Assembly (NCBI GenBank): GCA_030643245.1
Contig: DAOWME010000003.1
Location: 1-38,224, forward strand
From: Deltaproteobacteria bacterium
Lineage (GTDB): Bacteria > Desulfobacterota > UBA8473
Length of the DNA stretch: 38,224 nucleotides
Direction: 5' to 3'
Shown: one piece after another, positions 1 to 37,727 of the stretch
How positions within the stretch are numbered: the first letter of the stretch is position 1
Layout: every line of letters starts with the position of its first letter
Position numbers and translations under genes: made by a program
The notes under the pieces: generated by a model
The model's database searches: none
What the model saw: the letters and a program-made list of their open reading frames with translations, nothing else
Told to the model about the DNA's origin: nothing

Positions 1-151
1 GTGCATCTCATCTTCAGGCCATCTTTGCCCGATCTTCAAACACAAAATCCTCAAAATAGTTCGACTATTCCTGCGGTTTTGCGTTTTCAGATCGAACAAA
101 TCTAACCTAAATCTAAGCGCCAACTTGAGGAAGTTATTTCGGCCACGTCCC
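1..151 (+). mobile_element. MITE family A, copy 1 (left end cut off by window edge)
   Basis: Near-identical to 28198-28372, 37416-37717 and 38114-38224. Ends in the right TIR ggaagttatttcggccacgtccc. Confidence 0.85.
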
Positions 152-262
152 TTGTCAGGGTCACGGAAGACGAAGATTTTAACCTCAGGAATACAATGAG
201 TAGTATAAAATCTGAGTCTGACGCAGAGATTACGGAAAAGTACCATTTCTGGATGGGGGCTG
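152..262. repeat. Remnant of a second MITE-like element abutting copy 1
   Basis: Contains aacctcaggaata, the reverse complement of the family A core motif tattcctgcggtt (1 mismatch). Ends in ccatttctggatggg, similar to ccatttatggatggg near 18911. Confidence 0.4.
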
Positions 263-592
263 GTTAACAACGGGAAACAAGAAACAAACCAGGAGGGGGG
301 GGTAAAAAAGGTTACACGCGTTTGATAATTCCAAAGCTTGGTCTCAGTATCTGTTACTTTTATGTAACCATCCAAGAATGTGACCTAAGTTTTTATAAAC
401 AGGGCAAAATGTCATCTTGGAGGAACAAAGACGATAAAAAGATGTTACATTTTCTTCACGTCTCGGCCATCGAATCACATCCAGTCATCTTAATAAAGTA
501 CCCTGAACATGATCCGCTTTCATCCTTTTAAAAGACCATAACACCTTGATTATTATGGTTTTGGTGAGAATCTCTGCAAACGAGTGAGGCGA

Positions 593-610
593 TGAATGAA
601 GATTCATTCA
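593..610. promoter_or_regulatory. Palindromic operator TGAATGAA-GA-TTCATTCA (TetR/FadR-like)
   Basis: Perfect 8-bp arms, 9 bp upstream of TTGACA at 620. A second copy lies at 1656-1677. Confidence 0.7.
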
Positions 611-619
611 ATTTTTTTA

Positions 620-649
620 TTGACACCGGGCTTGCAACCATGATACAAA
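620..649 (+). promoter_or_regulatory. Putative sigma70 promoter
   Basis: TTGACA (620-625), 18-bp spacer, TG-n-TACAAA extended -10 (641-649). Confidence 0.45.
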
Positions 650-911
650 AGCCCGAAATTACGAAATTAGGGCTCACATTAAGCAATAAACACTTGGAAA
701 TTAAGTAAGTTATGGTCCTGAGATTTAAATGATTTCTAGTTGCAGTACATCCCTGGTATTTAGGCCCTTACTTCTACAATTTTAACAAGGGATCTCCTTG
801 CCCGGGTTTATCCCGGCACAACTTTTGCTGATTGTTGCTCATCAAGTGAATGGCCGAGAACATTGTATGGTATGGCTCCGGATGGTTCACAGTATTTATC
901 AGAGTTGGGCA

Positions 912-1130
912 ATGGTCAGCATCTTGATAGACGAAGAAAAGTGCAATTGTTGTGGATTGTGCGTGGGCGTATGCCCGAATGAGATATTGGTAAAAAGATC
1001 GGATGGTTGTTCTCCTCTGGTAACGGATGGAGAATGCTTTGGGTGCGAGAATTGTATAGTGATATGCGAGACTGGGGCCATTAGGATTATTGAAGAAGGT
1101 GAGGACGCCCCAAACGGGACAAAAACGTGA
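912..1130 (+). CDS. 2x[4Fe-4S] ferredoxin
   Basis: CNCCGLCVGVCP and CFGCENCIVICE motifs. Start moved to ATG 912 (MVSILIDEEKC), which looks like a typical ferredoxin N-terminus. Confidence 0.85.
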   Translation: MVSILIDEEKCNCCGLCVGVCPNEILVKRSDGCSPLVTDGECFGCENCIVICETGAIRIIEEGEDAPNGTKT

Positions 1131-1218
1131 CAAAGAGCCCCCGTTTTTGGCGAACTCGGATGGAGCACGGTAAGGGAACTCGGTAACGGATCCAAGAGTT
1201 AGAAAGGGGAGGTATCAG

Positions 1219-1542
1219 ATGGCAGATTATTATGTCAATGTCTTTATGGATGATGAAAAACTGAAGAAGATCGAAGATGCGGGGTTGGCAGGTGAGGTGA
1301 AGGAGATAGATGGCAAGAAATCGGTCCAAGTAGGCCTTAGTAAGAAGGAACATAAAAAGCTTTGCAAGAGTTTTCCGGATATGGCCACAGACGCTTCGAA
1401 TTGCTGTGTGCTTCCGGAAGAGGCAGAGAATACATTACTGGGTTTTGTAACGGACATGAAGACCCTCGATGTCATGAAGGCTGCAATCATGAAGCTCTAC
1501 AACCCCCTTGCAGGCAAGGATATCCGTAGTAGGATGCATTAA
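1219..1542 (+). CDS. Hypothetical protein, 107 aa
   Basis: Strong RBS (GGAGG), natural globular composition, contains NCC. No family assigned. Confidence 0.8.
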   Translation: MADYYVNVFMDDEKLKKIEDAGLAGEVKEIDGKKSVQVGLSKKEHKKLCKSFPDMATDASNCCVLPEEAENTLLGFVTDMKTLDVMKAAIMKLYNPLAGKDIRSRMH

Positions 1543-1611
1543 ATGGTGAGAGTTGTTGCAGACCGCCGACATTCATGAAGCAATTGATATTGCTTTTCCT
1601 TCAAAAAAGTA

Positions 1612-1640
1612 TTGACTTCTTCAAGGTGAAGTGCTATTTT
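1612..1640 (+). promoter_or_regulatory. Putative sigma70 promoter for hyp-TPR-dsrAB
   Basis: TTGACT-N17-TATTTT with extended -10 TG. Confidence 0.6.
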
Positions 1641-1655
1641 TCATCCGTCGGAGGT

Positions 1656-1677
1656 AATGAATGAATATTCATTCATT
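1656..1677. promoter_or_regulatory. Palindromic operator AATGAATGAATATTCATTCATT
   Basis: Perfect 22-bp palindrome just downstream of the predicted transcription start, a repressor position. Confidence 0.75.
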
Positions 1678-2914: not shown

Positions 2915-4222
2915 ATGACAAAACGTAAGACTCCTATGTTAGATGAGCTGGAGAAAGGAAGCTGGCCTAGTTTCGTATCTGATATGAAACAGGAGGCCGA
3001 AGCCAGAGAAAAGACGGATGTCGATTTGCAGACCCCGAGGGAATGTGTCGATGATCTGCTCGGTCTTCTTGAACTTACATATGTGGACAAGGTGGTCCAC
3101 TGGAAACACGGTGGAATTGTCGGCGTATTCGGATACGGCGGCGGTGTTATCGGCAGATACTGCGACCAGCCCGAAGAATTTCCGGGTGTGAGAGACTTCC
3201 ATACAATGCGCGTCAATCAACCGTCGAGCAAGTTTTATTCCTCGGAATACTTGAGGCAAGTATGTGAATTATGGGAGAGACGTGGTAGCGGCCTGACCAA
3301 TATGCATGGTTCCACGGGTGATATCATCCTGCTTGGGACCACTACACCGCAGTTGGAAGAGGTCTTCTGGGAACTGACCCATAACCTTGATCAGGATCTC
3401 GGTGGGTCCGGTTCCAACCTGAGAACCCCATCCTGCTGTATAGGGAAGGCCAGATGCGAATTTGCCTGTTACGATACCCAGGCTATCTGCACTGAGTTTA
3501 CTATGGAATATCAGGATGAGTTGCATAGGCCCGCATTTCCTTATAAGTTCAAGTTTAAGTTCGATGGATGTCCTAACGGTTGTGTGGCAGCCATTGCCAG
3601 GGCCGACATGTCGATTATCGGCGCATGGCGAGACGATATACGAATAGACCAGGAAGCTGTCAATGCTTATGTCGGGGGTGAGATCAAACCCAACGGAGGA
3701 GCCCATTCCGGGCGTGACTGGGGGGCCTTCGATATTCAAAAAGAGGTGGTCGACCTTTGTCCCACCGAATGTATGTCATGGGATGGAAAGAAATTGGGGA
3801 TTTACAATAAAGAATGTAACCGTTGTATGCATTGTATAAATGTGATGCCCAGAGCCCTGAGGATAGGAGAGGATACAGGCGCCTCCATTCTCTTTGGAGC
3901 AAAGGCCCCTATCTTGGAGGGCGCTCAGATGTCCACATTGACTATCCCGTTCATGAAGATCGAGGAGCCGTATGAGGAACTAAAGGATATTGTCGAGAAG
4001 GTGTGGGATTATTGGTCTGAAGAGGGTAAGAACAGAGAACGCCTTGGTGAGTTGATACAGAGAGAGGGCTTTCAGAAGTTCCTCGAAGTCTGTGAACTCG
4101 ATGCAGACCCTCGAATGATCCAGGAGCCTCGATCTAACCCTTACATCTTTTGGAAGGAGGAGGATGTTCCGGGTGGATGGGAGAGGGATATCAATGAATT
4201 TAGGAAAAAACACCAGAAATAG
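2915..4222 (+). CDS. dsrA: Dissimilatory sulfite reductase alpha subunit
   Basis: HWKHGGIVGVFGYGGGVIGRY; siroheme-[4Fe-4S] motifs CIGKARC and CPNGC; YKFKFK. Confidence 0.99.
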   Translation: MTKRKTPMLDELEKGSWPSFVSDMKQEAEAREKTDVDLQTPRECVDDLLGLLELTYVDKVVHWKHGGIVGVFGYGGGVIGRYCDQPEEFPGVRDFHTMRVNQPSSKFYSSEYLRQVCELWERRGSGLTNMHGSTGDIILLGTTTPQLEEVFWELTHNLDQDLGGSGSNLRTPSCCIGKARCEFACYDTQAICTEFTMEYQDELHRPAFPYKFKFKFDGCPNGCVAAIARADMSIIGAWRDDIRIDQEAVNAYVGGEIKPNGGAHSGRDWGAFDIQKEVVDLCPTECMSWDGKKLGIYNKECNRCMHCINVMPRALRIGEDTGASILFGAKAPILEGAQMSTLTIPFMKIEEPYEELKDIVEKVWDYWSEEGKNRERLGELIQREGFQKFLEVCELDADPRMIQEPRSNPYIFWKEEDVPGGWERDINEFRKKHQK

Positions 4223-4234
4223 GAGGTTTTATCA

Positions 4235-5350
4235 ATGGTCTATGATCCAAGTGATCCATTGAAGGATAGGATAACTGATATAGGTCCGAAAAATTACAAG
4301 GAGTTTTTACCTAATGTAATCAAAGAGAATTACGGGAAGTGGCTTTACCATGAGATCCTTGAACCGGGCGTACTTATGCACGTCTCGGAAACGGGAGACA
4401 AGGTTTACACCGTTAGGGTCGGTGGATGCCGCCTCATGAGTGTTACACACATACGTGAGATATGTGAGATCGCAGACAAACACTGTGACGGATACATGAG
4501 GTTCACCACCCGCAATAATATCGAGTTTATGGTCGATGACGAAGCAAAGTTGAAACCCTTGATGGAAGACCTTGATGGCAGAGAGTTTTCGGCAGGGTCC
4601 AAGAAATTCCCGAGGGGCGGTACAGGTGCCGGTCTTACCAACATCGTGCATACCCAGGGCTGGATCCACTGCCATACACCGGCCATCGATGCTTCCGGCG
4701 TTGTAAAGTGCGTGATGGACGAACTGTTCGATGATTTCCAGGGCATGAGATTTCCGGCGCAGGTCAGAATATCCCTCGCCTGCTGTCTCAATATGTGCGG
4801 CGCAGTCCACTGCTCCGACATCGCTATCCTGGGAATCCATCGCAAGCCCCCGATGCTTGACCATGAGAATCTCGACAATATGTGTGAGATCCCGTTGGCA
4901 ATAGCAGCATGCCCAACCGGGGCTATCAAACCGGCTAAGGTTGACGGTAAGAAGAGCGTTGCGGTTAAAAATGAGAGGTGCATGTTCTGCGGCAATTGTT
5001 ATACCATGTGCCCTAGCATGCCGTTGGCTGATGAAGAGGGGAGTGGCGTCGCCCTGCTGGTGGGAGGCAAGATATCGAACAGGATAAGCGAGCCGAAGTT
5101 CTCAAAGGTGGTGGTTCCCTTTATCCCCAATGAGCCCCCGCGTTGGCCGTCAACCGTTGATGCGATCAAGAAGATCCTCTATGCATACGTAGATGACGCA
5201 AAGAAATACGAACGCCTCGGTGATTGGGCCGAGAGGATCGGCTGGGAGAGGTTTTTTGATAAGACCGGCCTGCCTTTCTCGGGACATCTCATCGACGATT
5301 ATCGCTTCGCATATACGACCTGGCGTCAGAGCACACAATTCAAATTCTAA
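4235..5350 (+). CDS. dsrB: Dissimilatory sulfite reductase beta subunit
   Basis: [37 protein letters not shown]; C-terminus [11 protein letters not shown]. Confidence 0.99.
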
Positions 5351-5361
5351 TGAACGAAATA

Positions 5362-5409
5362 GTTCACAGGGATCAGTACGGTAACAAATCATCTCTGATC
5401 TCTGTGAAC
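5362..5409 (+). other. Intercistronic RNA stem-loop between dsrB and dsrD
   Basis: gttcacagggatcag pairs with ctgatctctgtgaac (15 bp, one G-U), with an 18-nt loop. Confidence 0.6.
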
Positions 5410-5431
5410 CTTTAATTAAAAGAGGTGTCCA

Positions 5432-5674
5432 ATGGGGCCTGAAGAGGATAGACAGCTTATAGTCGATACACTGAAAAAGAAAAAAGGAAAGACGAAATTC
5501 TACCTGAAAGATTTCAATAAGATCTTTCCAGACAGGAAACCAAGGGAAGTGAAGAAGCTTGTAAATAAGATGGTCACTGAGGGGATCCTTGAGTACTGGT
5601 CAAGCGGGAGCACTACCTTGATCGGGCTGAAAGGCGCCGGTAAGCAGCACGACACTGAGGAAAAGGACGAATAA
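5432..5674 (+). CDS. dsrD: DsrD
   Basis: KTKFYLKD and LEYWSSGSTT motifs; follows dsrB. Confidence 0.96.
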   Translation: MGPEEDRQLIVDTLKKKKGKTKFYLKDFNKIFPDRKPREVKKLVNKMVTEGILEYWSSGSTTLIGLKGAGKQHDTEEKDE

Positions 5675-5679
5675 AGAGA

Positions 5680-7143
5680 ATGTATATGGACTGTCCCAGG
5701 ATAGCCTTCTCCGCATTGCGAGGAAATTCAGGCAAGACACTCTTGACTGTAGGTGTGGTAGCAAAGCTCCACAGGGATGGAAAGGCCGTCTCTCCTTTCA
5801 AGAAGGGGCCGGATTATATAGATGCGGCCTGGCTGGCCCTTGCGGCTGATCGTTCCTGTTACAACCTCGATGCGTTTTTGATGGAGCGGGAGGCCCTTAT
5901 TTCTTCCTTTACAACCCATGTGAGGCAGTCCGACTGCGCCATAATGGAGGGCAACAGGGGTCTCTTCGATGGAATGGACGCACACGGTAGTTACAGTACT
6001 GCCGAGCTCGCCAAGATGCTTCAGATGCCGGTGGTTCTCATAGTCGACTGCAGTATGGCAACCCGCACGGTCGCCGCAATGGTCCTCGGCTGTCAACACC
6101 TTGACCCTGAGGTGGCCATAAAGGGGGTCATTCTCAATCGGGTTCGGGGAAATCGCCACGAATCAATTGTGCGCCGTGCTGTAGAGGAGAATTGCGGAGT
6201 TTCAATATTGGGGGCCGTCCCCAGGATAAAAGGATCAGTCTTTCCGGAAAGGCATATGGGGCTCGTTCCACCTCAGGAACACCCGGGCGCCCGCAAAGCC
6301 GTGGACAAGGCTGTAGGGATTGTCGAAGAATTCATAGATGTAAAGGAAGTATGGAAGATTGCCTTAGAGGCGCCACCTCTCGACCTGATTGATTCTACTG
6401 AAGATAGATCACAAGAGGGGATGCAATTGATGCCTCGAAAAAGGCCGCGGATCGGATTTATCAGGGATTCTGCCTTCTGGTTTTACTATCCTGATAACCT
6501 GGAGGCCCTTGAAAGACTGGGGGCCGAAATGGTAGAGTGCAACGCCCTCCTGCAGGATGAGCTTCCGAGGTTGGATGCCCTGTACATCGGAGGGGGGTTT
6601 CCTGAGACCCATGCCGAGGCCCTGGCTGCCAACTCAGGTTTCCGAAGGTCTCTGAATGAGGCAGTAGAAGATGGACTTCCCGTGTATGCGGAGTGTGGCG
6701 GGCTGATGTATCTTGGGAGAAACCTGTTAATTGACGGAAGCACTTTCCCCATGACCGGTGTCTTTCCCTTGACTATTGAACTGAAAAGAAGTCCCCAGGG
6801 TCATGGGTACACCATCCTTGAAGTTGATAAACCCAACCCCTATTTCAAAGTAGGGGAGGCCATATGCGGCCATGAGTTTCACTATTCCAGAATCGTGGAT
6901 TTAGCGGAAAAAGAGATGCCCCTGGCATTTAAAGTCAGGAGAGGATGCGGTGTAGATGGGAGAAGGGATGGACTATATTACAGGAATGTCTTGGCAACAT
7001 ACTCTCATCTCCACGTTTTAGGGAAAAAAGAATGGGCTGAGGGTCTCTTTGACCTGGCCATTTCTTATGGTCATAAGCCCGGGAGAAAAAGAGAAGATGT
7101 GCCCTTTAACGAGGGTAATCTCCCCGCTGCCCTGAATTTCTGA
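5680..7143 (+). CDS. dsrN: Siroheme amidase DsrN (CbiA/CobB-like)
   Basis: SGKT, FKKGPDYID, EGNRGLFDG, ERHMGL; GATase motifs YAECGG and GHEFHY; follows dsrD. Confidence 0.93.
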   Translation: MYMDCPRIAFSALRGNSGKTLLTVGVVAKLHRDGKAVSPFKKGPDYIDAAWLALAADRSCYNLDAFLMEREALISSFTTHVRQSDCAIMEGNRGLFDGMDAHGSYSTAELAKMLQMPVVLIVDCSMATRTVAAMVLGCQHLDPEVAIKGVILNRVRGNRHESIVRRAVEENCGVSILGAVPRIKGSVFPERHMGLVPPQEHPGARKAVDKAVGIVEEFIDVKEVWKIALEAPPLDLIDSTEDRSQEGMQLMPRKRPRIGFIRDSAFWFYYPDNLEALERLGAEMVECNALLQDELPRLDALYIGGGFPETHAEALAANSGFRRSLNEAVEDGLPVYAECGGLMYLGRNLLIDGSTFPMTGVFPLTIELKRSPQGHGYTILEVDKPNPYFKVGEAICGHEFHYSRIVDLAEKEMPLAFKVRRGCGVDGRRDGLYYRNVLATYSHLHVLGKKEWAEGLFDLAISYGHKPGRKREDVPFNEGNLPAALNF

Positions 7144-7162
7144 TGGAAACGCCAGTGGAAGA

Positions 7163-7990
7163 ATGGAAGATGTACGCGTTGCTGTGGTGGTAATGGAATC
7201 AGTGGTGGGAAGAACATCTGACAACCTGACGCGAATAGAGGCATTTGCCCTGGACGCTGCTGCTCAAGGGGCAGACCTGGTCTGTTTTCCTGAAGCGAGC
7301 ATAACGGGGTACCGTGTTGATGCAACGATTGCAACCTATGCTGAACCCATCCCCGGACCCAGTAGCAACGTTTTAGTTAGTCTATCTAAGTATACCGGTC
7401 TCACAATATTGAGCGGCTTGATAGAGAGAGGAGAAGATGACGACCTCTTTATCAGTCATATCGTCACATCTCCCGATGGATTGGGGGATGTCTACAGGAA
7501 ACTCCACCTTGCCCCGAATGAAGAAAATGTATACAGCCATGGCGACAGGCTACCCACGTATAGATATGGCGAGACGACCTTTGGCGTTGAATTATGCTAT
7601 GACACACATTTTCCGGAACTGACTACTGTCCTGGCTCTCCGGGGGGTAGAAGTCCTTTTTCTGCCTTATGCCTCTCCTAGAGAGACCCCCATGGAGAAAA
7701 GGGAACGATGGATCCGGTACCTTTCAGCACGTGCTTATGATAATAGCATATTTGTGGTGGCGTGCAATCAGGTCGGGCGTTACGATACCGGACTGACATT
7801 TCCGGGAGTGGCCATTATCTTCGACCCGAAAGGTAGGGTTATGACTGAGAGTTGTGGTAAGGGTGAAAGTATGGCGATAACTGATTTGAGGTCCGGTGTT
7901 TTGAAACAGGTTCGAGAAAGTAAAATGGGCTTCTTTTTGAGTCGTCGTCGGCCGGAGGTATATAGGTCGCTTTCAGATTCGTTTAATTAA
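7163..7990 (+). CDS. Carbon-nitrogen hydrolase (nitrilase family)
   Basis: Glu-Lys-Cys triad in CFPEASITGY, YRKLHL and LCYD; also ARAYDN and RRPEVY. Confidence 0.92.
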   Translation: MEDVRVAVVVMESVVGRTSDNLTRIEAFALDAAAQGADLVCFPEASITGYRVDATIATYAEPIPGPSSNVLVSLSKYTGLTILSGLIERGEDDDLFISHIVTSPDGLGDVYRKLHLAPNEENVYSHGDRLPTYRYGETTFGVELCYDTHFPELTTVLALRGVEVLFLPYASPRETPMEKRERWIRYLSARAYDNSIFVVACNQVGRYDTGLTFPGVAIIFDPKGRVMTESCGKGESMAITDLRSGVLKQVRESKMGFFLSRRRPEVYRSLSDSFN

Positions 7991-8028
7991 CAAAAATTGA
8001 CAATAACAAAAAAGAGGAGGTAAAGAAT

Positions 8029-8349
8029 ATGCCAGAATTAGAACTTGGGGGGAACACTTACGAGGTTGACGAGGATGGCTTCTTACAGCAGCTTGATAAG
8101 TGGAACCCGCAATTTGCGCAGGACTATGCGCCCCTGGAAGGCATAGACGGAGAACTCACGGAAGATCATTGGAAGCTTATCAACTATATCAGAGATTATT
8201 ATGAAGAGTACGGCATTGCGCCCATGATCAGGAAACTTTGCAAGGATTGCAAGTTTAAGCTGAAATACATATATGAGATGTTTCCGTCAGGCCCTGCAAA
8301 AGGTGCGTGTAAGCTGGCCGGGTTATCTAAACCTACCGGGTGTGTCTAA
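8029..8349 (+). CDS. dsrC: DsrC sulfur-relay protein
   Basis: VDEDGFL; both C-terminal cysteines present (ACKLAGLSKPTGCV, CX10C). Confidence 0.97.
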   Translation: MPELELGGNTYEVDEDGFLQQLDKWNPQFAQDYAPLEGIDGELTEDHWKLINYIRDYYEEYGIAPMIRKLCKDCKFKLKYIYEMFPSGPAKGACKLAGLSKPTGCV

Positions 8350-8382
8350 AGATAAGTAAGGGAATGAGAAAGGAAGGTCAAG

Positions 8383-8781
8383 ATGGACCTCGTTAATGTC
8401 AAGCATGAAGGGGGGCTTTGTTTTTCCGTCAATGTGCGGAACCACAGATTCTTGGTGGACATGGCAGAGGACGAAGGGGGCTCCGATAAAGGCCCTTCAC
8501 CGGCAGAGATACTCGTCGCGGCTTTTGGTTCATGCGTAGGAGCTCACATTGCAAGGTACTGCCAGACAGCAAAGATCCCCCACGAGGGGATGGAATTGAA
8601 CCTGACTTTCCAGACGACCAAAGAAGGAACCAGGATAAGGATTTCAAGTCTTGTGGGAGAGATATCTCTCCCACAAGACCCCGGTCCCCGTTCGAAGGCT
8701 GTGATGAGTGCGGGTGAAAATTGTATAATCCGGAATACGCTGGCGCAAGGGCCTGAAATTGATCTGGATTTGGATATATGA
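8383..8781 (+). CDS. OsmC/Ohr family protein
   Basis: GGSDKGPSPAEILVAAFGSC plus a second Cys in ENCIIRNTL. Confidence 0.88.
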   Translation: MDLVNVKHEGGLCFSVNVRNHRFLVDMAEDEGGSDKGPSPAEILVAAFGSCVGAHIARYCQTAKIPHEGMELNLTFQTTKEGTRIRISSLVGEISLPQDPGPRSKAVMSAGENCIIRNTLAQGPEIDLDLDI

Positions 8782-8863
8782 TCGTCCGGTGTTCCATCGG
8801 CCTTGAAGGCTTGAACCATAGAAGAGATTCGTTGTTGAGAGTAGGGTAATAGAGAGCCGGACA

Positions 8864-9430
8864 ATGAAGTTGGAAGATTTGCTGGCACAAAAGATGACCG
8901 CCATCACGAAGGCGTGGTTTCAACTGGTCATGGAGACATATCCTCCCGATGGTTCACGGTTTCTGAAACAAGAAGAGAACCGCTTTGCTAATCCGGTTGG
9001 ATCTACGATCTCTCAGGAGTTAGGGAATATTTTCGAGGAGCTTCTTAATGGCGTGGATTCCGAGAGCATCTCTCCTTTTCTGGACAGAATCATCAGGATC
9101 AGGGCTGTTCAGGATTTTTCTCCCTCCCGGGCCCTTTCGTTTATCTTTGATCTAAAGAAGATTATAAAAAAGGAATTGGGAAGTAAAATCAGGGATAGAG
9201 AGGACTATGATGAGTTGTTGAAGTTTGATTCCAGGATAGACCTACTTGCCATGCTCGCGTTCGACATATATATGAAATGCAGAGAGGAGATCTATAAAAT
9301 CAGGGTGAATGAGGTTAAGAACAGGGCACACCGCCTACTTGAAAGGGCAAAGCTGATATGTGACCTTTCTGATGAGGAACCTGATTTCAAAGACGATAAG
9401 TTAGATGGCAAGGATATGGAATTCGTTTAA
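8864..9430 (+). CDS. dsrT: DsrT (RsbRD N-terminal domain)
   Basis: FANPVG, IRIRAVQDFSPS, AFDIYMKCRE; directly upstream of dsrM. Confidence 0.92.
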   Translation: MKLEDLLAQKMTAITKAWFQLVMETYPPDGSRFLKQEENRFANPVGSTISQELGNIFEELLNGVDSESISPFLDRIIRIRAVQDFSPSRALSFIFDLKKIIKKELGSKIRDREDYDELLKFDSRIDLLAMLAFDIYMKCREEIYKIRVNEVKNRAHRLLERAKLICDLSDEEPDFKDDKLDGKDMEFV

Positions 9431-9528
9431 ATGGTTTAAATGATTAACCTTCTGTGGGAAATCTTAATTAATCTAGCCTTTGGTATGTGAAAATTAACTA
9501 TGTAAATTTATATATGAGGTGGTAAGAA

Positions 9529-10527
9529 ATGGGTGCGTCGTTTTCTCTACTCACAGTTTTAGTATTGGTTTTGCTTGCCTTCATGGGAGTGAGGGTGGCC
9601 GGGTGGGATCCCCTCTTTGGAGTGGTAATCCCGTATACTGCCCTCTTTGTCTTCCTCGTGGGCGTTGTGTATCGTATATGGGATTGGGCAAAGTCACCCG
9701 TGCCTTTCCGCATACCGACCACATGTGGTCAGCACAAGTCTCACCCGTGGATTAAAGGAAATAATATCGAGAATCCGTCCAATATCTTTGGCGTTGTAAT
9801 AAGGATGGCGCTCGAAATTCTTTTTTTCCGTTCCCTATTCCGGAACACCAAAACTGAGTTGAGAGCTGACCCGAGCCCGCGGCTCATCTTCGGAGAAAAC
9901 AAGTGGCTGTGGGCCGCAGGGCTCGCCTTTCACTGGTCCTTTCTCTTTATTGTTGTGAGGCACCTCAGGTTCTTCACTGAACCTATACCGTTCTTTGTGG
10001 GTCTTATTGAGTATATGGATGGGTTGTTCGAGATCGGTGTTCCCACGCTTTACATGACCGACGTGGTTATCCTGGCGGCAGTCACATACCTGTTTTTGAG
10101 AAGGGTTGTGATCCCCCAGGTGCGATACATCTCCATTGCAGCAGACTATTTCCCACTCTTTCTCATCCTGGGGGTGGCCATTTCCGGTGTTCTCATGCGG
10201 CATTTTTATAAGGTGGACATGCTAAGGGTAAAGGAACTGGCCACGGGGTTGTTCAGTTTTCATCCGGTAACTCCGGAGGGTATCGGGGTGTCTTTTTATA
10301 TTCACCTCTTTCTCGTGAGCATCCTGCTGATTTACTTTCCCTTCAGCAAATTGATGCACATGGCCGGAGTCTTCCTCAGCCCCACAAGAAATATGCCGAA
10401 TGATAACCGCAAGCGAAGACACATCAATCCGTGGGATTATCCCGTCAAGGTCCATACGTACGAGGAGTATGAAGACGAATTTAGAGAAAAGATGAAAAAA
10501 TACGGAATTCCCGTGGAAAAGGAGTGA
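9529..10527 (+). CDS. dsrM: DsrM membrane cytochrome b
   Basis: PFRIPTTCGQ, FHWSF..RHLR, YFPFSKLMH, SPTRN. Confidence 0.97.
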   Translation: MGASFSLLTVLVLVLLAFMGVRVAGWDPLFGVVIPYTALFVFLVGVVYRIWDWAKSPVPFRIPTTCGQHKSHPWIKGNNIENPSNIFGVVIRMALEILFFRSLFRNTKTELRADPSPRLIFGENKWLWAAGLAFHWSFLFIVVRHLRFFTEPIPFFVGLIEYMDGLFEIGVPTLYMTDVVILAAVTYLFLRRVVIPQVRYISIAADYFPLFLILGVAISGVLMRHFYKVDMLRVKELATGLFSFHPVTPEGIGVSFYIHLFLVSILLIYFPFSKLMHMAGVFLSPTRNMPNDNRKRRHINPWDYPVKVHTYEEYEDEFREKMKKYGIPVEKE

Positions 10528-10530
10528 TAT

Positions 10531-12171
10531 ATGTCATCAGAGCTACCACCAGAACTAGCTGATTCCCCAAAACCGAAAGAACTAATGGCCATAGACTACA
10601 GGCCTCCTCAACAGCCCTGGATGGAGACACCCGTTAACTTCAAACCGGGCAACTATTGCTTCCCTACCAAGGCCAAAAACCTTCGTGTCCTTGATATGCC
10701 GAATCCGAGGGAATGGGCGCCGGAAGAAGAAGACTGGAAGCTGCCCGAAAACTGGATGGAGATAATCCGTGAGGGGATGAAGGATCGACTTGACAAATAC
10801 CGTTCCTTCAAGCTATTCATGGATATCTGTGTGAGATGCGGCGCATGCGCGGACAAGTGCCATTTTTTTCTAGGATCTGGGGACCCAAAAAATATGCCCG
10901 TTCTCAGGGCAGAGCTCCTTAGATCGGTGTATCGTGGGGAGTTCACAAAGGCAGGGAAGATCCTGGGAAAGCTTGCCGGGGCCAGGAAACTCACAATAGA
11001 CGTGATCAAGGAGTGGTTCTACTATTTCTACCAGTGTACGGAGTGTCGTCGATGTTCTGTTTTTTGCCCTTACGGCATTGATACGGCTGAAATCACTATG
11101 ATGGGAAGGGAGTTGCTCCATTTACTCGGGTTAGGTATCAACTGGGCCATGGAGCCTGTGGCGAATTGTTTCCGAACAGGGAATCACCTCGGGATTTTGC
11201 CCAATGGATTCAAGGATGCCCTTGATTTCTTCGCAGAAGATGCTGAAGAGATTACGGGTGTCAAGATAGACGTTCCCATAAATAAGAAGGGGGCGGAGAT
11301 ACTCTTTGTGGTGCCGTCCGGTGATTATTTTGGGGATCCCGGCACTTACACCTGCACCGGCTACATAATGCTCTTCCACGAGCTGGGACTCGACTATACA
11401 TGGAGCACATATGCTTCCGAAGGGGGAAATTTTGGTCTCTTTACTTCCCACGAGATGATTAAACGCCTGAATGCCAAGATATACGCGGAGGCCAAAAGAC
11501 TGGGGGTGAAGTGGATCCTCGGAGGAGAGTGCGGTCATATGTGGCGGGTTGTCAACCAGTATATGGATACGATGAACGGACCGGCGGATTTTCTCGAAGA
11601 GCCCGTCTCCCCCATCACGGGAACGAAGTTTGAGAACGCCAACTCCACGAAGATGGTCCATATCATGGAGTTTACCGCTGATCTAATCAGGCACAATAAA
11701 TTAAGGCTTGACCCGAGTAGAAATGACAACCGCATCGTAACATTCCACGACTCATGCAACCCGGCAAGGGCCATGGGAATTCTCGAAGAGCCTCGGTATG
11801 TGATAAAAAATGTCTGTAATAACTTCTACGAGATGCCGGAGAATACGATCAGGGAGCAAACGTTCTGCTGCGGAGGCGGCGCCGGGCTGGGCACGGATGA
11901 AAATATGGATACTAGGTTGAGAGGCGGGCTTCCAAGAGGGAACGCCGTGAGGTATGTACAGGAGAAACATGGTGTGAACAGCCTTGCCTGTATGTGCGCC
12001 ATTGACAGGGCTACCCTCATAACCGTGTGTGACTACTGGGCTCGGGGAGTGGAGGTTACGGGTATTCATGAGATGGTGGCAAACGCGCTGATCATGAGAG
12101 GTGAGAAGGACAGGCAGACCGATCTCCGTGGTGAACCTCTGCCCGGAAAGGAGGATGAAGAGGATGTATAA
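10531..12171 (+). CDS. dsrK: DsrK Fe-S/CCG protein
   Basis: CVRCGACADKC, CTECRRCSVFCP, GECGH, HDSC, CCGGG. Confidence 0.97.
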   Translation: MSSELPPELADSPKPKELMAIDYRPPQQPWMETPVNFKPGNYCFPTKAKNLRVLDMPNPREWAPEEEDWKLPENWMEIIREGMKDRLDKYRSFKLFMDICVRCGACADKCHFFLGSGDPKNMPVLRAELLRSVYRGEFTKAGKILGKLAGARKLTIDVIKEWFYYFYQCTECRRCSVFCPYGIDTAEITMMGRELLHLLGLGINWAMEPVANCFRTGNHLGILPNGFKDALDFFAEDAEEITGVKIDVPINKKGAEILFVVPSGDYFGDPGTYTCTGYIMLFHELGLDYTWSTYASEGGNFGLFTSHEMIKRLNAKIYAEAKRLGVKWILGGECGHMWRVVNQYMDTMNGPADFLEEPVSPITGTKFENANSTKMVHIMEFTADLIRHNKLRLDPSRNDNRIVTFHDSCNPARAMGILEEPRYVIKNVCNNFYEMPENTIREQTFCCGGGAGLGTDENMDTRLRGGLPRGNAVRYVQEKHGVNSLACMCAIDRATLITVCDYWARGVEVTGIHEMVANALIMRGEKDRQTDLRGEPLPGKEDEEDV

Positions 12172-12550
12172 TGGAGGTAAGATATTTGCAGGGCTTATTG
12201 TCTTCATCTGTCTGATAACCTTTCCTGTCTGGTATAATGTGGTTCGCGGGAAAGCAGCGTACAGACCGGAACTGAAAATAGTAACAGAGGAAAAAGAGTG
12301 TGTGGAGTCCTCGGAATACATGAGAAACGAGCATATGCATTTGCTCGATGACTGGCGAAATTCGGTTGTGCGGGAAAACAAGAGAACTTACACGGCATAT
12401 GACGGAAAGGAGCATGAGATGAGTCTTTCCAATACATGCTTGAAATGTCATTCCAATAAGGCTGACTTTTGCGACCAGTGTCACAATTATCTTGAGGTAA
12501 CGCCAACCTGCTGGGATTGCCATGTTATTCCCGAGGAGAAGAAGTTATGA
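12164..12550 (+). CDS. dsrJ: DsrJ triheme cytochrome c
   Basis: Three CxxCH motifs (CLKCH, CDQCH, CWDCH), MRNEHM, N-terminal TM segment. Start ATG 12164 overlaps the dsrK end. Confidence 0.96.
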   Translation: MYNGGKIFAGLIVFICLITFPVWYNVVRGKAAYRPELKIVTEEKECVESSEYMRNEHMHLLDDWRNSVVRENKRTYTAYDGKEHEMSLSNTCLKCHSNKADFCDQCHNYLEVTPTCWDCHVIPEEKKL

Positions 12551-13335
12551 AGATCGATAGAAGAGATTTTTTGAAGATCGGCGGACTCGGCGCACTTGGT
12601 ATTGCAGCCAAGCCGGTCATTAATGTGCTTTCAAAAGGCGAGTCGGCGGAGGCCTCGCACGGAGGGGGGGCCGTAGGAGGCAAAAGACTGGCCATGGTTG
12701 TAGACCTTAAGAAGTGCAAGGAAGGATGCACGGATTGCATTGATGCTTGTCATAAGGCCCATAACGTGCCGGATTTTCACAACCCGAAGGATGAGGTCAA
12801 GTGGCTCTGGAACGAGCCATATGAAAAGGCATTTCCGGAACAAGAACACGAATGGGTCGGGGGGGGGATGAAAGGCGGTCCCGTCATGGTCCTCTGCAAT
12901 CACTGCGATAACCCGCCCTGTGTGCGGGTCTGTCCTACAAAGGCTACATTCAGGAGAGAAGACGGGATCGTTATGATGGACTATCATCGTTGCATTGGGT
13001 GCAGATTTTGCATGGCAGCCTGTCCGTATGGATCGAGGAGCTTCAACTGGCGTAACCCCAGGGGATGTGACGCATCGGGCAATACCTTCATCGAAAAGCA
13101 GAATCCAGGCTTTCCCACCAGGACCACAGGGGTCGTAGAAAAATGCAATTTTTGCGCAGAGAGGCTCGCAAAGGGCCTGATCCCTGCCTGTGCCGAGGCC
13201 TGCAAGGAAAATGCGATTGTTTTCGGAGACCTGGAAGAAGCGGACTCAGAGGTGAGAGAAGTCCTTCATTCAAATTACACCATTCGACGTAAACCCGGCC
13301 TTGGAACAAGGCCTCAAATCTATTACATAGTGTGA
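12547..13335 (+). CDS. dsrO: DsrO Fe-S protein
   Basis: Tat motif DRRDFLK; CNHCDNPPCVRVCP, CIGCRFCMAACP, KCNFC. Confidence 0.96.
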   Translation: MKIDRRDFLKIGGLGALGIAAKPVINVLSKGESAEASHGGGAVGGKRLAMVVDLKKCKEGCTDCIDACHKAHNVPDFHNPKDEVKWLWNEPYEKAFPEQEHEWVGGGMKGGPVMVLCNHCDNPPCVRVCPTKATFRREDGIVMMDYHRCIGCRFCMAACPYGSRSFNWRNPRGCDASGNTFIEKQNPGFPTRTTGVVEKCNFCAERLAKGLIPACAEACKENAIVFGDLEEADSEVREVLHSNYTIRRKPGLGTRPQIYYIV

Positions 13336-13341
13336 GGAGTT

Positions 13342-14499
13342 ATGATTGAAAAGGCTTTGGTCGGTAGTAAGAAATACTGGGGACTGTTGATTGTTCTGCT
13401 CGCTATTATGGGAGTGGGCGGGATTTGTTATCTCTTTCAGTGGAATTACGGCTTGGGTATAACAGGGATGAGCAGGGACGTTTCATGGGGTCTATATATC
13501 GCCCAATTCACTTTCCTTGTAGGTGTCGCAGCTTCGGCGGTTATGGTTGTCCTGCCCTACTATTTGCATAATTATAAAGCATTCGGGAGGATTACAATCC
13601 TGGGAGAATTTGTGGCCGTGCCCTCGGTTATCATGTGTCTTGCGTTCATTATTGCAGACCTCGGTCAACCGACAAGGGCGCTCAATATAGTATTCCACCC
13701 GACTCTAAATTCTATACTCTTCTGGGATATGATAGTCCTAAACGGCTACCTTCTCCTCAATATCCTCATCGGGTGGAATGTGTTGGCTTCCGAGAGGAAG
13801 TCCGTGCCGCCGCCGCGTTGGTTAAAGCCTTTGATCTATCTATCTATCCCCTGGGCTGTCAGCATTCACACGGTTACTGCTTTCATTTACGCAGGCCTGC
13901 CGGGAAGGGGCTTTTGGCTTACGGCCATTATGGCCCCCCGTTTTTTGGCGTCGGCTTTCGCGGCAGGACCAGCCCTTCTCATTTTGCTCGCTCTTGTTGT
14001 TAGAAAATTCACAAAGTTTGATCCGGGAAAGGACGCGATACAGACATTAGGAAAAATTGTTACATATGCGATGTCAGTGAGTGTCTTTTTCGTCCTCCTT
14101 GAACTCTTTACTGTCTTCTACAGTCAGATACCCGAGCACATGCATCACTTCGACTATATTTTTGCGGGACTCGAAGGGCATGGAAAGCTTGTGCCGTGGA
14201 TGTGGAGTTCCGTTGTGCTTGCCGTCTTGGCGCTTATCCTTCTTTTAAACCCCGCTACCCGAAAAAATGAAAACATTTTGGCCATCGCTTGCGTTATCGT
14301 CTTCTTTTCCCTTTGGATAGAGAAGGGGTTCGTTTTAGTTGTAGCGGGTTTTATCCCCTCATCTCTTGGCAAGGTGTTTGAGTATTCGCCCACGGTACCT
14401 GAAATTTTAATCACCCTTGGGATCTGGGCGATGGGATTTTTCATACTCACCATCCTTTACAAAATGGCCATCATGGTTAAGGAAGAGATAGCAAGTTGA
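13342..14499 (+). CDS. dsrP: DsrP (NrfD family membrane protein)
   Basis: GMSRDVSWGLYI, AVSIHTVTAF; polytopic membrane protein. Confidence 0.96.
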   Translation: MIEKALVGSKKYWGLLIVLLAIMGVGGICYLFQWNYGLGITGMSRDVSWGLYIAQFTFLVGVAASAVMVVLPYYLHNYKAFGRITILGEFVAVPSVIMCLAFIIADLGQPTRALNIVFHPTLNSILFWDMIVLNGYLLLNILIGWNVLASERKSVPPPRWLKPLIYLSIPWAVSIHTVTAFIYAGLPGRGFWLTAIMAPRFLASAFAAGPALLILLALVVRKFTKFDPGKDAIQTLGKIVTYAMSVSVFFVLLELFTVFYSQIPEHMHHFDYIFAGLEGHGKLVPWMWSSVVLAVLALILLLNPATRKNENILAIACVIVFFSLWIEKGFVLVVAGFIPSSLGKVFEYSPTVPEILITLGIWAMGFFILTILYKMAIMVKEEIAS

Positions 14500-14592: not shown

Positions 14593-14784
14593 ATGTCTTG
14601 GATTGTAACGGTGGATAAAGATAAGTGTGACGGGGACGGAGCATGTGTGGAGAACTGCCCCGTTGAAGTTCTTGAGTTGGATGCCGATGGAAAGGCGGAC
14701 CCGGTTAATATGGAGGAATGCCTTGGCTGTGAAACCTGCATGGAAGTGTGTGAAACCGGAGCCATAAACGTAGAGGAGGAGTAA
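14593..14784 (+). CDS. Ferredoxin (CxxDxxC plus CxxCxxC)
   Basis: CDGDGACVENCP and CLGCETCMEVCE; strong RBS AGGAGGT. Confidence 0.93.
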   Translation: MSWIVTVDKDKCDGDGACVENCPVEVLELDADGKADPVNMEECLGCETCMEVCETGAINVEEE

Positions 14785-17592: not shown

Positions 17593-17599
17593 TGATCTC

Positions 17600-17655
17600 G
17601 GGGCGGGTTTCAAATCCGCCATACGAGTGTGGGGTGGGCTTCAAGCCCACCCCAC
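17600..17655 (+). terminator. Two REP-like hairpins after aprA (probable terminator or mRNA stabiliser)
   Basis: ggcgggtttcaaatccgcc and the perfect gtggggtgggctt-c-aagcccaccccac (17629-17655). Confidence 0.6.
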
Positions 17656-17777
17656 TTATATAGCTCTTATATAGGTTTTGAGATATTAAATTTCAAAAGA
17701 CCTGAGAGACGAACCCGAATAAGTGGTACATTTTGAGTGATACGTCGTGGGTTATGACCGGTAACGGAGTGAAGTTT

Positions 17778-17910
17778 GATGGTCTCGTAAAAAGTCAAAA
17801 AATACTATTTCCCGTCATTCCGGCGAAAGCCGGAATCCTGTGTTTTCAGGCAGTTGCGGATCATCTGGACTCCGGTTTTCACCGGAGTGACGACTTTTTA
17901 CGAATTCATC
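17778..17910. mobile_element. MITE family B (133 bp) carrying an inverted REP pair
   Basis: TIRs gatggtctcgtaaaaagtc / gactttttacgaattcatc (3 mismatches); flanking direct repeat aagttt. Internal gtcattccggcgaaagccggaatcc (17814-17838) and an inverted counterpart (17867-17891). Confidence 0.8.
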
Positions 17911-17917
17911 AAGTTTG

Positions 17918-18002
17918 ATATATCATAAATTTTGAAACTCATTTGAATTATGCATTTCAGCCATTTATAGCTCATAATTGAGTTTCAAAATTTCTGATAT
18001 AT
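17918..18002. repeat. 85-bp AT-rich inverted-repeat element
   Basis: 24-bp arms at 17918-17941 and 17979-18002 with one mismatch. Confidence 0.75.
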
Positions 18003-18032
18003 TGAAATCTAGAAGAAAAGGCGGCTTTTGTA

Positions 18033-18857: not shown

Positions 18858-19009
18858 AAAATTGCTCATTTCTGAATTGGAAACCAACTCGTGCCCTTTT
18901 CTCAAGAAGTCCATTTATGGATGGGCACTAGGTAGTCTGAGGATGTATAAATGAGCATGTTCGATGAATAATATCCTACATTCTATGTAATGGGAGACAA
19001 GGAGGAAAC

Positions 19010-28168: not shown

Positions 28169-28372
28169 AGGACGGGGACGAAATAACTTCCCCATTTGTG
28201 CATCTCATCTTCAGGCCATCCCCCGATCGGGGTCGAGGACAGGCTTTGCCCGATCTTCAAACACAAAATCCTCAAAATAGTTCGACTATTCCTGCGGTTT
28301 TGCGTTTTCAGATCAAACAAATCTAACCTAAATCTGAGCGCCAACTTGAGGAAGTTACTTCGTCCCCGTCCC
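28169..28372 (+). mobile_element. MITE family A, copy 2 (complete; 24-bp insert at 28221-28244)
   Basis: TIRs aggacggggacgaaataacttcc / ggaagttacttcgtccccgtccc; flanks TTA and TAA. Confidence 0.9.
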
Positions 28373-28406
28373 TAAGGCTTTCAATACTTTTTCCCAGGGG
28401 GAACAT

Positions 28407-37415: not shown

Positions 37416-37717
37416 GGGGCGAGGCCGAAATAACTTCCTCATTTGTACATCTCATCTTCAGGCCATCTTTGAACGATCTTCAAACACAAAATCCTCGAAA
37501 TAGGTAAGACTATTCGGCATCCTTCATACATCGGTTTACACTTTTTAAATTATGGCTGCTGAATCTATGCCGAGACCGTTTTTTTATTCGAAAGAGTAAA
37601 CTACTTTATAGCTTTTATGAAGGATGCCGACTATTCCTGTGGTTTTGTATTTTCAGATCGAACAAATCTGACCTAAATCTGAGCGCCAACTTGAGGAAGT
37701 TATTTCGTCCCCGTCCC
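37416..37717 (+). mobile_element. MITE family A, copy 3 (with nested element)
   Basis: TIRs ggggcgaggccgaaataacttcctca / tgaggaagttatttcgtccccgtccc; TAA duplicated at 37413-37415 and 37718-37720. Confidence 0.9.
37516..37628. mobile_element. MITE family C (113 bp) nested in family A copy 3
   Basis: Perfect 13-bp TIR ggcatccttcata / tatgaaggatgcc. 8-bp duplication gactattc at 37508-37515 and 37629-37636; the empty site is present in copies 1 and 2. Confidence 0.92.
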
Positions 37718-37727
37718 TAATCTAGTG

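Follow-up and report, generated by a model that had tools for sequence, protein, structure and literature searches.

Little is settled about how sulfate-reduction genes are controlled outside Desulfovibrio, and many of the sulfate reducers that live in sediments are acyl-CoA oxidisers without cultured representatives. The stretch of DNA analysed here (the window, 38,224 nucleotides from a Desulfobacterota bacterium of the UBA8473 lineage) raises the question of what acts on the palindromes at the head of its dsr cluster. The original prediction had the motif occurring twice, the second time as a perfect 22-bp palindrome, and both copies were recovered: box 1, TGAATGAAGATTCATTCA, at 593-610, and box 2, TGAATGAATATTCATTCA, at 1658-1675, the core of the perfect palindrome at 1656-1677. 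The window contains no other exact match, and an order-4 Markov model expects 0.0002 in it. Throughout the genome to which the window belongs (G000; 2.8 Mb, 85% complete), TGAATGA-N4-TCATTCA has six exact copies, against 0.016 expected under an order-4 Markov model; allowing one mismatch brings in three further copies, and allowing two another 12. Scored with a matrix trained on relatives alone, box 2 (31.5 bits) is the best site of the genome and box 1 reaches 28.1 bits; aprBA, qmo and sat of the window are without a box by this matrix (next best score, 0.1 bit). We consider it probable that the boxes are operators of a Bacillus-type FadR encoded on another contig (C99), a predicted repressor of dsr and most core energy operons.

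Box 2 follows a promoter, as originally proposed. The promoter scan predicts a sigma-70 promoter, TTGACT-N17-(TG)TATTTT with an extended TG, at 1612-1640 on the forward strand, which places this putative dsr operator at about +10 to +30. The genes behind it, also on the forward strand, are in the order foreseen: a conserved hypothetical protein (hyp; 1781-2125), which is the first gene past box 2, a TPR protein (2109-2738), and dsrA, dsrB, and dsrD (2915-5674; TIGR02064, TIGR02066, and PF08679). They are followed at 5680-14499 by genes for a dsrN-like amidase, a nitrilase-like protein, dsrC, an OsmC-like protein, an RsbRD-domain protein (which we take to be dsrT), and dsrMKJOP. The gaps past dsrA through dsrMKJOP do not exceed 98 bp, and the genes from the dsrN-like amidase to dsrMKJOP are likely to be on the same transcript as dsrABD. 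Family comparison revealed no conserved sigma-70 promoter between the TPR gene and dsrA. The one candidate for an internal promoter before dsrA, a 9-of-12 match at 2769, was discarded: it is not conserved, and such matches are within chance (16 found, 16.1 expected).

Several other elements were noted in the gaps of this region. About 60-75 nt before dsrA (2838-2854) is a CTTTGGGGAGGGGGTGA-like element that is recognisable in nine of ten family genomes amid divergent DNA and occurs as a single copy in G000; a leader or processing element are candidate roles. The dsrB-dsrD gap (5360-5410) contains a long inverted repeat, possibly an mRNA-stabilising or processing hairpin. Further downstream, the dsrP-aprB gap holds a small ferredoxin-like reading frame (approximately 14594-14782), and aprB is preceded by TGGCACG, which resembles a sigma-54 -24 element and is paired with an imperfect -12 (coordinates approximate).

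The box before hyp-TPR-dsrAB is present at a conserved promoter in 11 of the 13 family genomes. DsrA, at most 78% identical to named records, was found in ten of the 12 family relatives. Where upstream DNA is available in the family (nine loci), dsrA is always preceded by an exact box at a distance of 1.2-1.5 kb, in agreement with the predicted conservation upstream of orthologous dsr operons, and in G011 an exact box precedes hyp-TPR on a contig separate from dsrA. Exact boxes occur in 12/12 family relatives vs. 4/28 genomes of other families, and none of ten outside dsrA loci has a box at two or fewer mismatches in the 1.0-5.2 kb searched upstream. Within the box 2 footprint 14 arm bases are invariant in an alignment with a mean identity of 44%, and TTGACTT and TG-x-T (the -35 and part of the -10) are invariant in all nine aligned family sequences. 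The expected enrichment in promoter regions was also seen, with TTGAC within 62 bp upstream of 90 of 99 sites vs. a background of 12%.

An alternative reading is that the palindromes fold as hairpins in RNA, or belong to a repeat element, and are not protein sites. The genome abounds in short intergenic repeats and box 2 is in the predicted 5′ leader, but we find this reading barely credible: the arms are conserved letter for letter around a free centre and between unrelated flanks, some copies overlap a -10 or precede a -35 and so would escape transcription, and the box sequence equals that of a crystallised FadR operator (GATGAATGAATACTCATTCAT), with one difference for box 2 in the 20-bp core. 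The intergenic repeats themselves are REP- or MITE-like (window 100-270, 17593-18030, 18858-19005, 28321-28373, and 37666-37718) and very abundant, three queries giving 482, 74, and 140 BLAST pieces genome-wide.

The two boxes are unequal, and the description of them as twin operators did not hold. Box 1 occurs only in G000 and G001, which are of the same genus, and it precedes a ferredoxin-DUF6955 unit. It was rejected as a family-level dsr operator, being absent in the other eight relatives with upstream DNA; of the motif proposed for the dsr promoters, box 2 thus stands as a family-conserved operator and box 1 does not. Box 1 (putative) ends 9 bp upstream of a TTGACA that starts at 620, as described, but is followed only by a poor -10 (TGa-TACAAA, 18-bp spacer). 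This possible sigma-70 promoter of the ferredoxin-DUF6955 unit (620-649, forward strand) was not called by the promoter scan; it has an identical arrangement in G001. A box upstream of the -35 recurs at hdrC, both in G000 and, in degenerate form, in ten of 11 family relatives, and box 1 is therefore plausibly functional. As a genus-level addition placed ahead of the -35, it may damp (or activate) the ferredoxin-DUF6955 unit.

The unit itself consists of a 2[4Fe-4S] ferredoxin (912-1130; start from alignment, the ORF finder start being 798) and a DUF6955 protein (1219-1542; PF22271), both on the forward strand. Upstream, a GTTAC-N6-GTAAC palindrome at 353-368, invariant in seven of seven aligned family sequences and not a FadR box, is a candidate sigma-54 activator enhancer site, and a conserved ATGTTACATTTT element at 442-453 is a second candidate. 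A sigma-54-like -24/-12 element (GG-N10-GC) precedes the ferredoxin at 814-828 on the forward strand, with TGGCA-N6-TTGC-type counterparts in relatives; the call assumes a sigma-54 consensus that we presume to apply. Box 1 lies between the enhancer-like sites and this element. The enhancer-like palindromes and the sigma-54-like promoter would give the head of the dsr cluster another, separate regulatory input, and in G006 an NtrC-like two-component pair is encoded directly upstream of the ferredoxin unit (L146 1309-2682).

The regulator gene was expected to lie outside the window, and a FadR orthologue is indeed encoded on contig C99. There, an exact box at C99:5403 stands before a tetR gene that is followed by etfB, etfA, and a gene for an FeS oxidoreductase. 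The 200-residue protein combines PF00440 (TetR_N) with PF08359 (the YsiA C-terminal domain). Among proteins of solved structure, it is closest to FadR of Bacillus subtilis (1vi0/3whb, E ~2e-38) and of B. halodurans (5gp9). The NCBIfam model for Bacillus FadR (NF053878) scores it at 185.8 bits (cut-off 200) and is the only family hit at E <1e-25. The repressor is of TetR type, as predicted, but it is a recognisable Bacillus-type FadR orthologue and not an undescribed protein. Among the DNA-contact residues of Bacillus FadR named in the available part of PMC5397183 (Gln29, Val30, Ala40, Gly42, Thr43, Tyr45, and Tyr47), six of seven are identical and Gln29 is Lys; the recognition helix is identical, with base-reading Gly42 and Tyr45 kept. 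The B. subtilis operator consensus published there, WTGAATGAMTANTCATTCAN (PMC5397183, available part), is fitted by box 2 at every position and by box 1 with one mismatch. The fadR loci of the family relatives (11/11) likewise have an exact box in front. Of the close outside FadR orthologues, six have upstream DNA, and each of these is preceded by a box with one mismatch or none, vs. none of ten distant TetRs. The genome carries a paralogue of the C99 FadR (87% identity) at the end of contig C139.

G000 holds five TetR genes, and one of the others, e.g., the C3 protein, could in principle bind the boxes, given that its own gene has a two-mismatch box of 19.9 bits. We regard this as very unlikely, in view of a different helix (AEGTVFHH vs. 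ADGTIYLY in FadR) and of an orthologue in only one of 12 relatives when boxes occur in 12/12; the C3 protein was dismissed as a family-wide binder for the latter reason. Its gene (G000:C3:14855; L008) is associated with an efflux cluster, and the related palindrome there may allow cross-talk with FadR.

What else FadR may govern was assessed across the 13 family genomes from every site within one mismatch of the motif (99 sites), for which the first gene was assigned in all but eight cases. The first genes are hyp-dsr, fadR, and an operon for an HMG-synthase-like protein, thiolase, and acyl-CoA dehydrogenase (11 of 13 genomes each), then atpI (10), fumarase (9), tmcD (8), fhs (7), livG-like and nuoA (5 each), cooC-folD-acsD (4), mrpE (3), and ferredoxin and a gene that we presume to be CoA-transferase-like (2 each). 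The motif therefore precedes both a tetR gene and acyl-CoA genes, the two kinds of target at which the original prediction proposed to look for it. Its claim that the box regulates dsr expression is retained in that dsr belongs to the predicted regulon, but has to be widened: this regulon comprises most core energy operons, not dsr alone. Of the about 60 acyl-CoA dehydrogenase loci found in G000, none has a strong box closer than 600 bp and one belongs to a box-led operon, and FadR is therefore predicted to govern the shared trunk and not the peripheral acyl-CoA pathways. No close fadN orthologue was identified in G000 (best, 31%). With ~60 such loci in 2.8 Mb, G000 appears to be an unusually acyl-CoA-centred sulfate reducer.

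We propose that FadR, as a dimer of dimers like Bacillus FadR, would bind 1656-1677 just past the start site and block the sigma-70 promoter of hyp-TPR-dsrABD...dsrMKJOP. Accumulating acyl-CoA thioesters would release it. Release would then switch on together the ETF and FeS oxidoreductase genes (the electron exit of beta-oxidation) and the Wood-Ljungdahl genes (acetyl-CoA oxidation), along with those for Tmc/Hdr/Nuo/Mrp, sulfite reduction, and ATP synthase. Such feed-forward, donor-sensing control may take the place of Rex, a protein not found in the family.

The ligand pocket of the C99 FadR carries changes, some of them specific to the family. In it His91 is Gln, Leu95 is Lys, Gln106 is Glu, and Phe66 is Ala/Ile; adenine-stacking Arg150 and Tyr174 are not kept, and Arg153 is also changed. 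The changes at 91 and 95 are found in 13/13 family sequences and that at 106 in 12/13, whereas outside FadR orthologues have His and a hydrophobic residue where the family has Gln91 and Lys95. These substitutions, the missing close fadN, and the few boxes at beta-oxidation genes would fit a FadR that represses at the boxes but whose signal is no longer long-chain acyl-CoA: it may instead be a different CoA thioester (short, branched, dicarboxylic, or aromatic) or some other energy signal. We hold this to be possible but somewhat unlikely: the FadR of another family (f46) reaches sulfate-reduction genes with His91, Gln106, and Arg117 intact, the equivalents of Phe59, Met63, Leu101, Arg110, Tyr127, Asp162, Asn120, and Glu162 are kept in the C99 protein, and ETF and the thiolase/dehydrogenase operon remain in the regulon.

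A second doubt concerns how strongly FadR would act. A rex mutant of Desulfovibrio alaskensis showed no response at the conserved Rex sites of dsrABD (PMC4045070, available part); a conserved site thus need not mean strong control. With this precedent, and with box 2 at ~+10 to +30, a greater distance than most relatives show, FadR might bind and yet only fine-tune or dampen near-constitutive energy promoters, with no on/off switch at dsr. We judge this unlikely, since no box in the genome scores higher than the one at dsr, which is exact in 11 genomes, is doubled in G002, where there are two promoters, and overlaps the -10 in G003. The reading we prefer remains repression by FadR at box 2.

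Known systems offer partial parallels. Bacillus FadR (YsiA) of B. subtilis and B. halodurans (1vi0, 3whb/3whc, 5gp9/5gpc; PMC5397183, available part) shares with the C99 protein the TetR_N and YsiA-type domains, the recognition helix, the operator, the box at its own promoter, and etfB-etfA in the operon. It represses five beta-oxidation operons, whereas the boxes of the window's family are mostly at respiratory and energy operons, with one acyl-CoA operon and ETF, and several pocket and CoA-anchoring residues differ. The FadR2 gene of Desulfococcus multivorans likewise adjoins etfAB and an FeS oxidoreductase gene, a likeness observed in gene neighbourhood, and FadR2 was detected specifically in myristate-grown cells (PMC5109826). 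This fits fatty-acid induction in a sulfate reducer, although in the available part of that paper FadR2 is proposed for myristate-specific proteins only and neither an operator nor a dsr link is named. The Desulfovibrio Rex regulon (PMC4045070, available part) resembles that of FadR here in that a single repressor has sites at operons for both sulfate reduction and energy conservation, but Rex has another fold and motif and was not found in the window's family. Predicted HcpR sites at sat and apsAB are also palindromic operators overlapping sulfate-reduction promoters; HcpR, however, has a CRP/FNR-type TTGTGA-N6-TCACAA motif that is not intergenic in the window and, in the available part of PMC545781, is not predicted at dsrAB.

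In the literature searched, including passages of PMC11887813, PMC545781, and a YsiA preprint (supplements, subscription papers, and RegPrecise were outside its scope), no link of FadR to dsr or apr was found. The FadR protein family and motif are already known; the regulon was not found in that literature. A search of sequencing runs returned no RNA holder among those listed. The analysis names a regulator, an operator, a regulon, and a candidate signal for dsr control. If the proposal is true, organic-donor supply would be reflected in the dsr transcript levels of these lineages, affecting the reading of environmental dsrAB expression, and a local catabolic repressor would, in organisms without Rex, have become a global energy regulator.

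Rex, to which the equivalent task falls in the well-studied sulfate reducers, senses NADH/NAD+. Consistent with the original prediction of no convincing Rex box, the window's intergenic regions hold no Rex-like site at two or fewer mismatches to a presumed Rex pattern. The same applies to HcpR-like sites, the pattern for which was drawn from the available part of PMC545781. The Rex DNA-binding domain (PF06971) was found in 0/13 family genomes, of which four reach at least 97% completeness, vs. 5/9 outside dsrA carriers. With neither a Rex domain in the family nor an intergenic site, Rex and HcpR were rejected as binders of the boxes.

In a sample of 301 genomes of the phylum, promoter-linked exact boxes occur in at least 77 among the matches listed, and 41 of 65 box-bearing genomes have dsrA. 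Outside the window's family (f1), boxes near dsrA were seen in f46, and also in G264, there at fad genes of the opposite strand. Among the 40 loci fetched, boxes in f46 head aprBA-qmoABC-dsrAB (6 genomes), dsrN-dsrC (5), hdrCB (4), and fadR-etf (4), and Rex is found in 0/7 genomes. Other Rex-poor families have boxes at atp genes (f38, f13), fhs (f34), or acsD, rnf, and nuoF-like genes (f7). In f18, f71, f32, and f81, which have Rex in 17/17 genomes, the fetched loci, a selection of sites, lead to fadR, fadN, or acyl-CoA dehydrogenase, with one unassigned. Exceptions run both ways: f95, f93, and f73 are without Rex and only fad-type boxes were seen, and G288 and G185 carry both a Rex-domain match and an energy-gene box. 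The families are kin, and the Rex/box pattern is therefore no statistical test. In a metagenome scan, hyp, TPR, dsrA, or apr lay behind the box in 0/80 loci examined of at least 119 found, and the assignable loci lead mostly to fadR, fadN, etfB, or acyl-CoA dehydrogenase, the ordinary role.

In a tree that is partly unresolved, the f1 and f46 FadRs fall into separate clades, and the promoters with boxes differ between the two families; this suggests, without proving it, that recruitment was independent. We give about even odds to the broader proposal that in several Rex-less lineages of Desulfobacterota an acyl-CoA-sensing FadR became the master repressor of sulfate respiration and of energy conservation, through at least two recruitments that involved different promoters, with CoA-thioester supply rather than the NADH/NAD+ ratio setting dsr, apr, Wood-Ljungdahl, and ATP synthase expression, here possibly through a new thioester and a remodelled pocket.

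Two further arrangements were observed. In f46 (L360-L364), sat is divergent from an aprBA-qmoABC-dsrAB-TPR-hyp run that is followed by dsrN-dsrC, a FadR box heading each, and the window's dsrD query gave no match in these loci. Among 80 named dsrA loci, two (L081 and L089), from unclassified Deltaproteobacteria, have a degenerate FadR-like box in the dsrA leader behind TTGACA-N17-TATAAA (4872-4889 and 4880-4897, respectively), possibly representing a third lineage.
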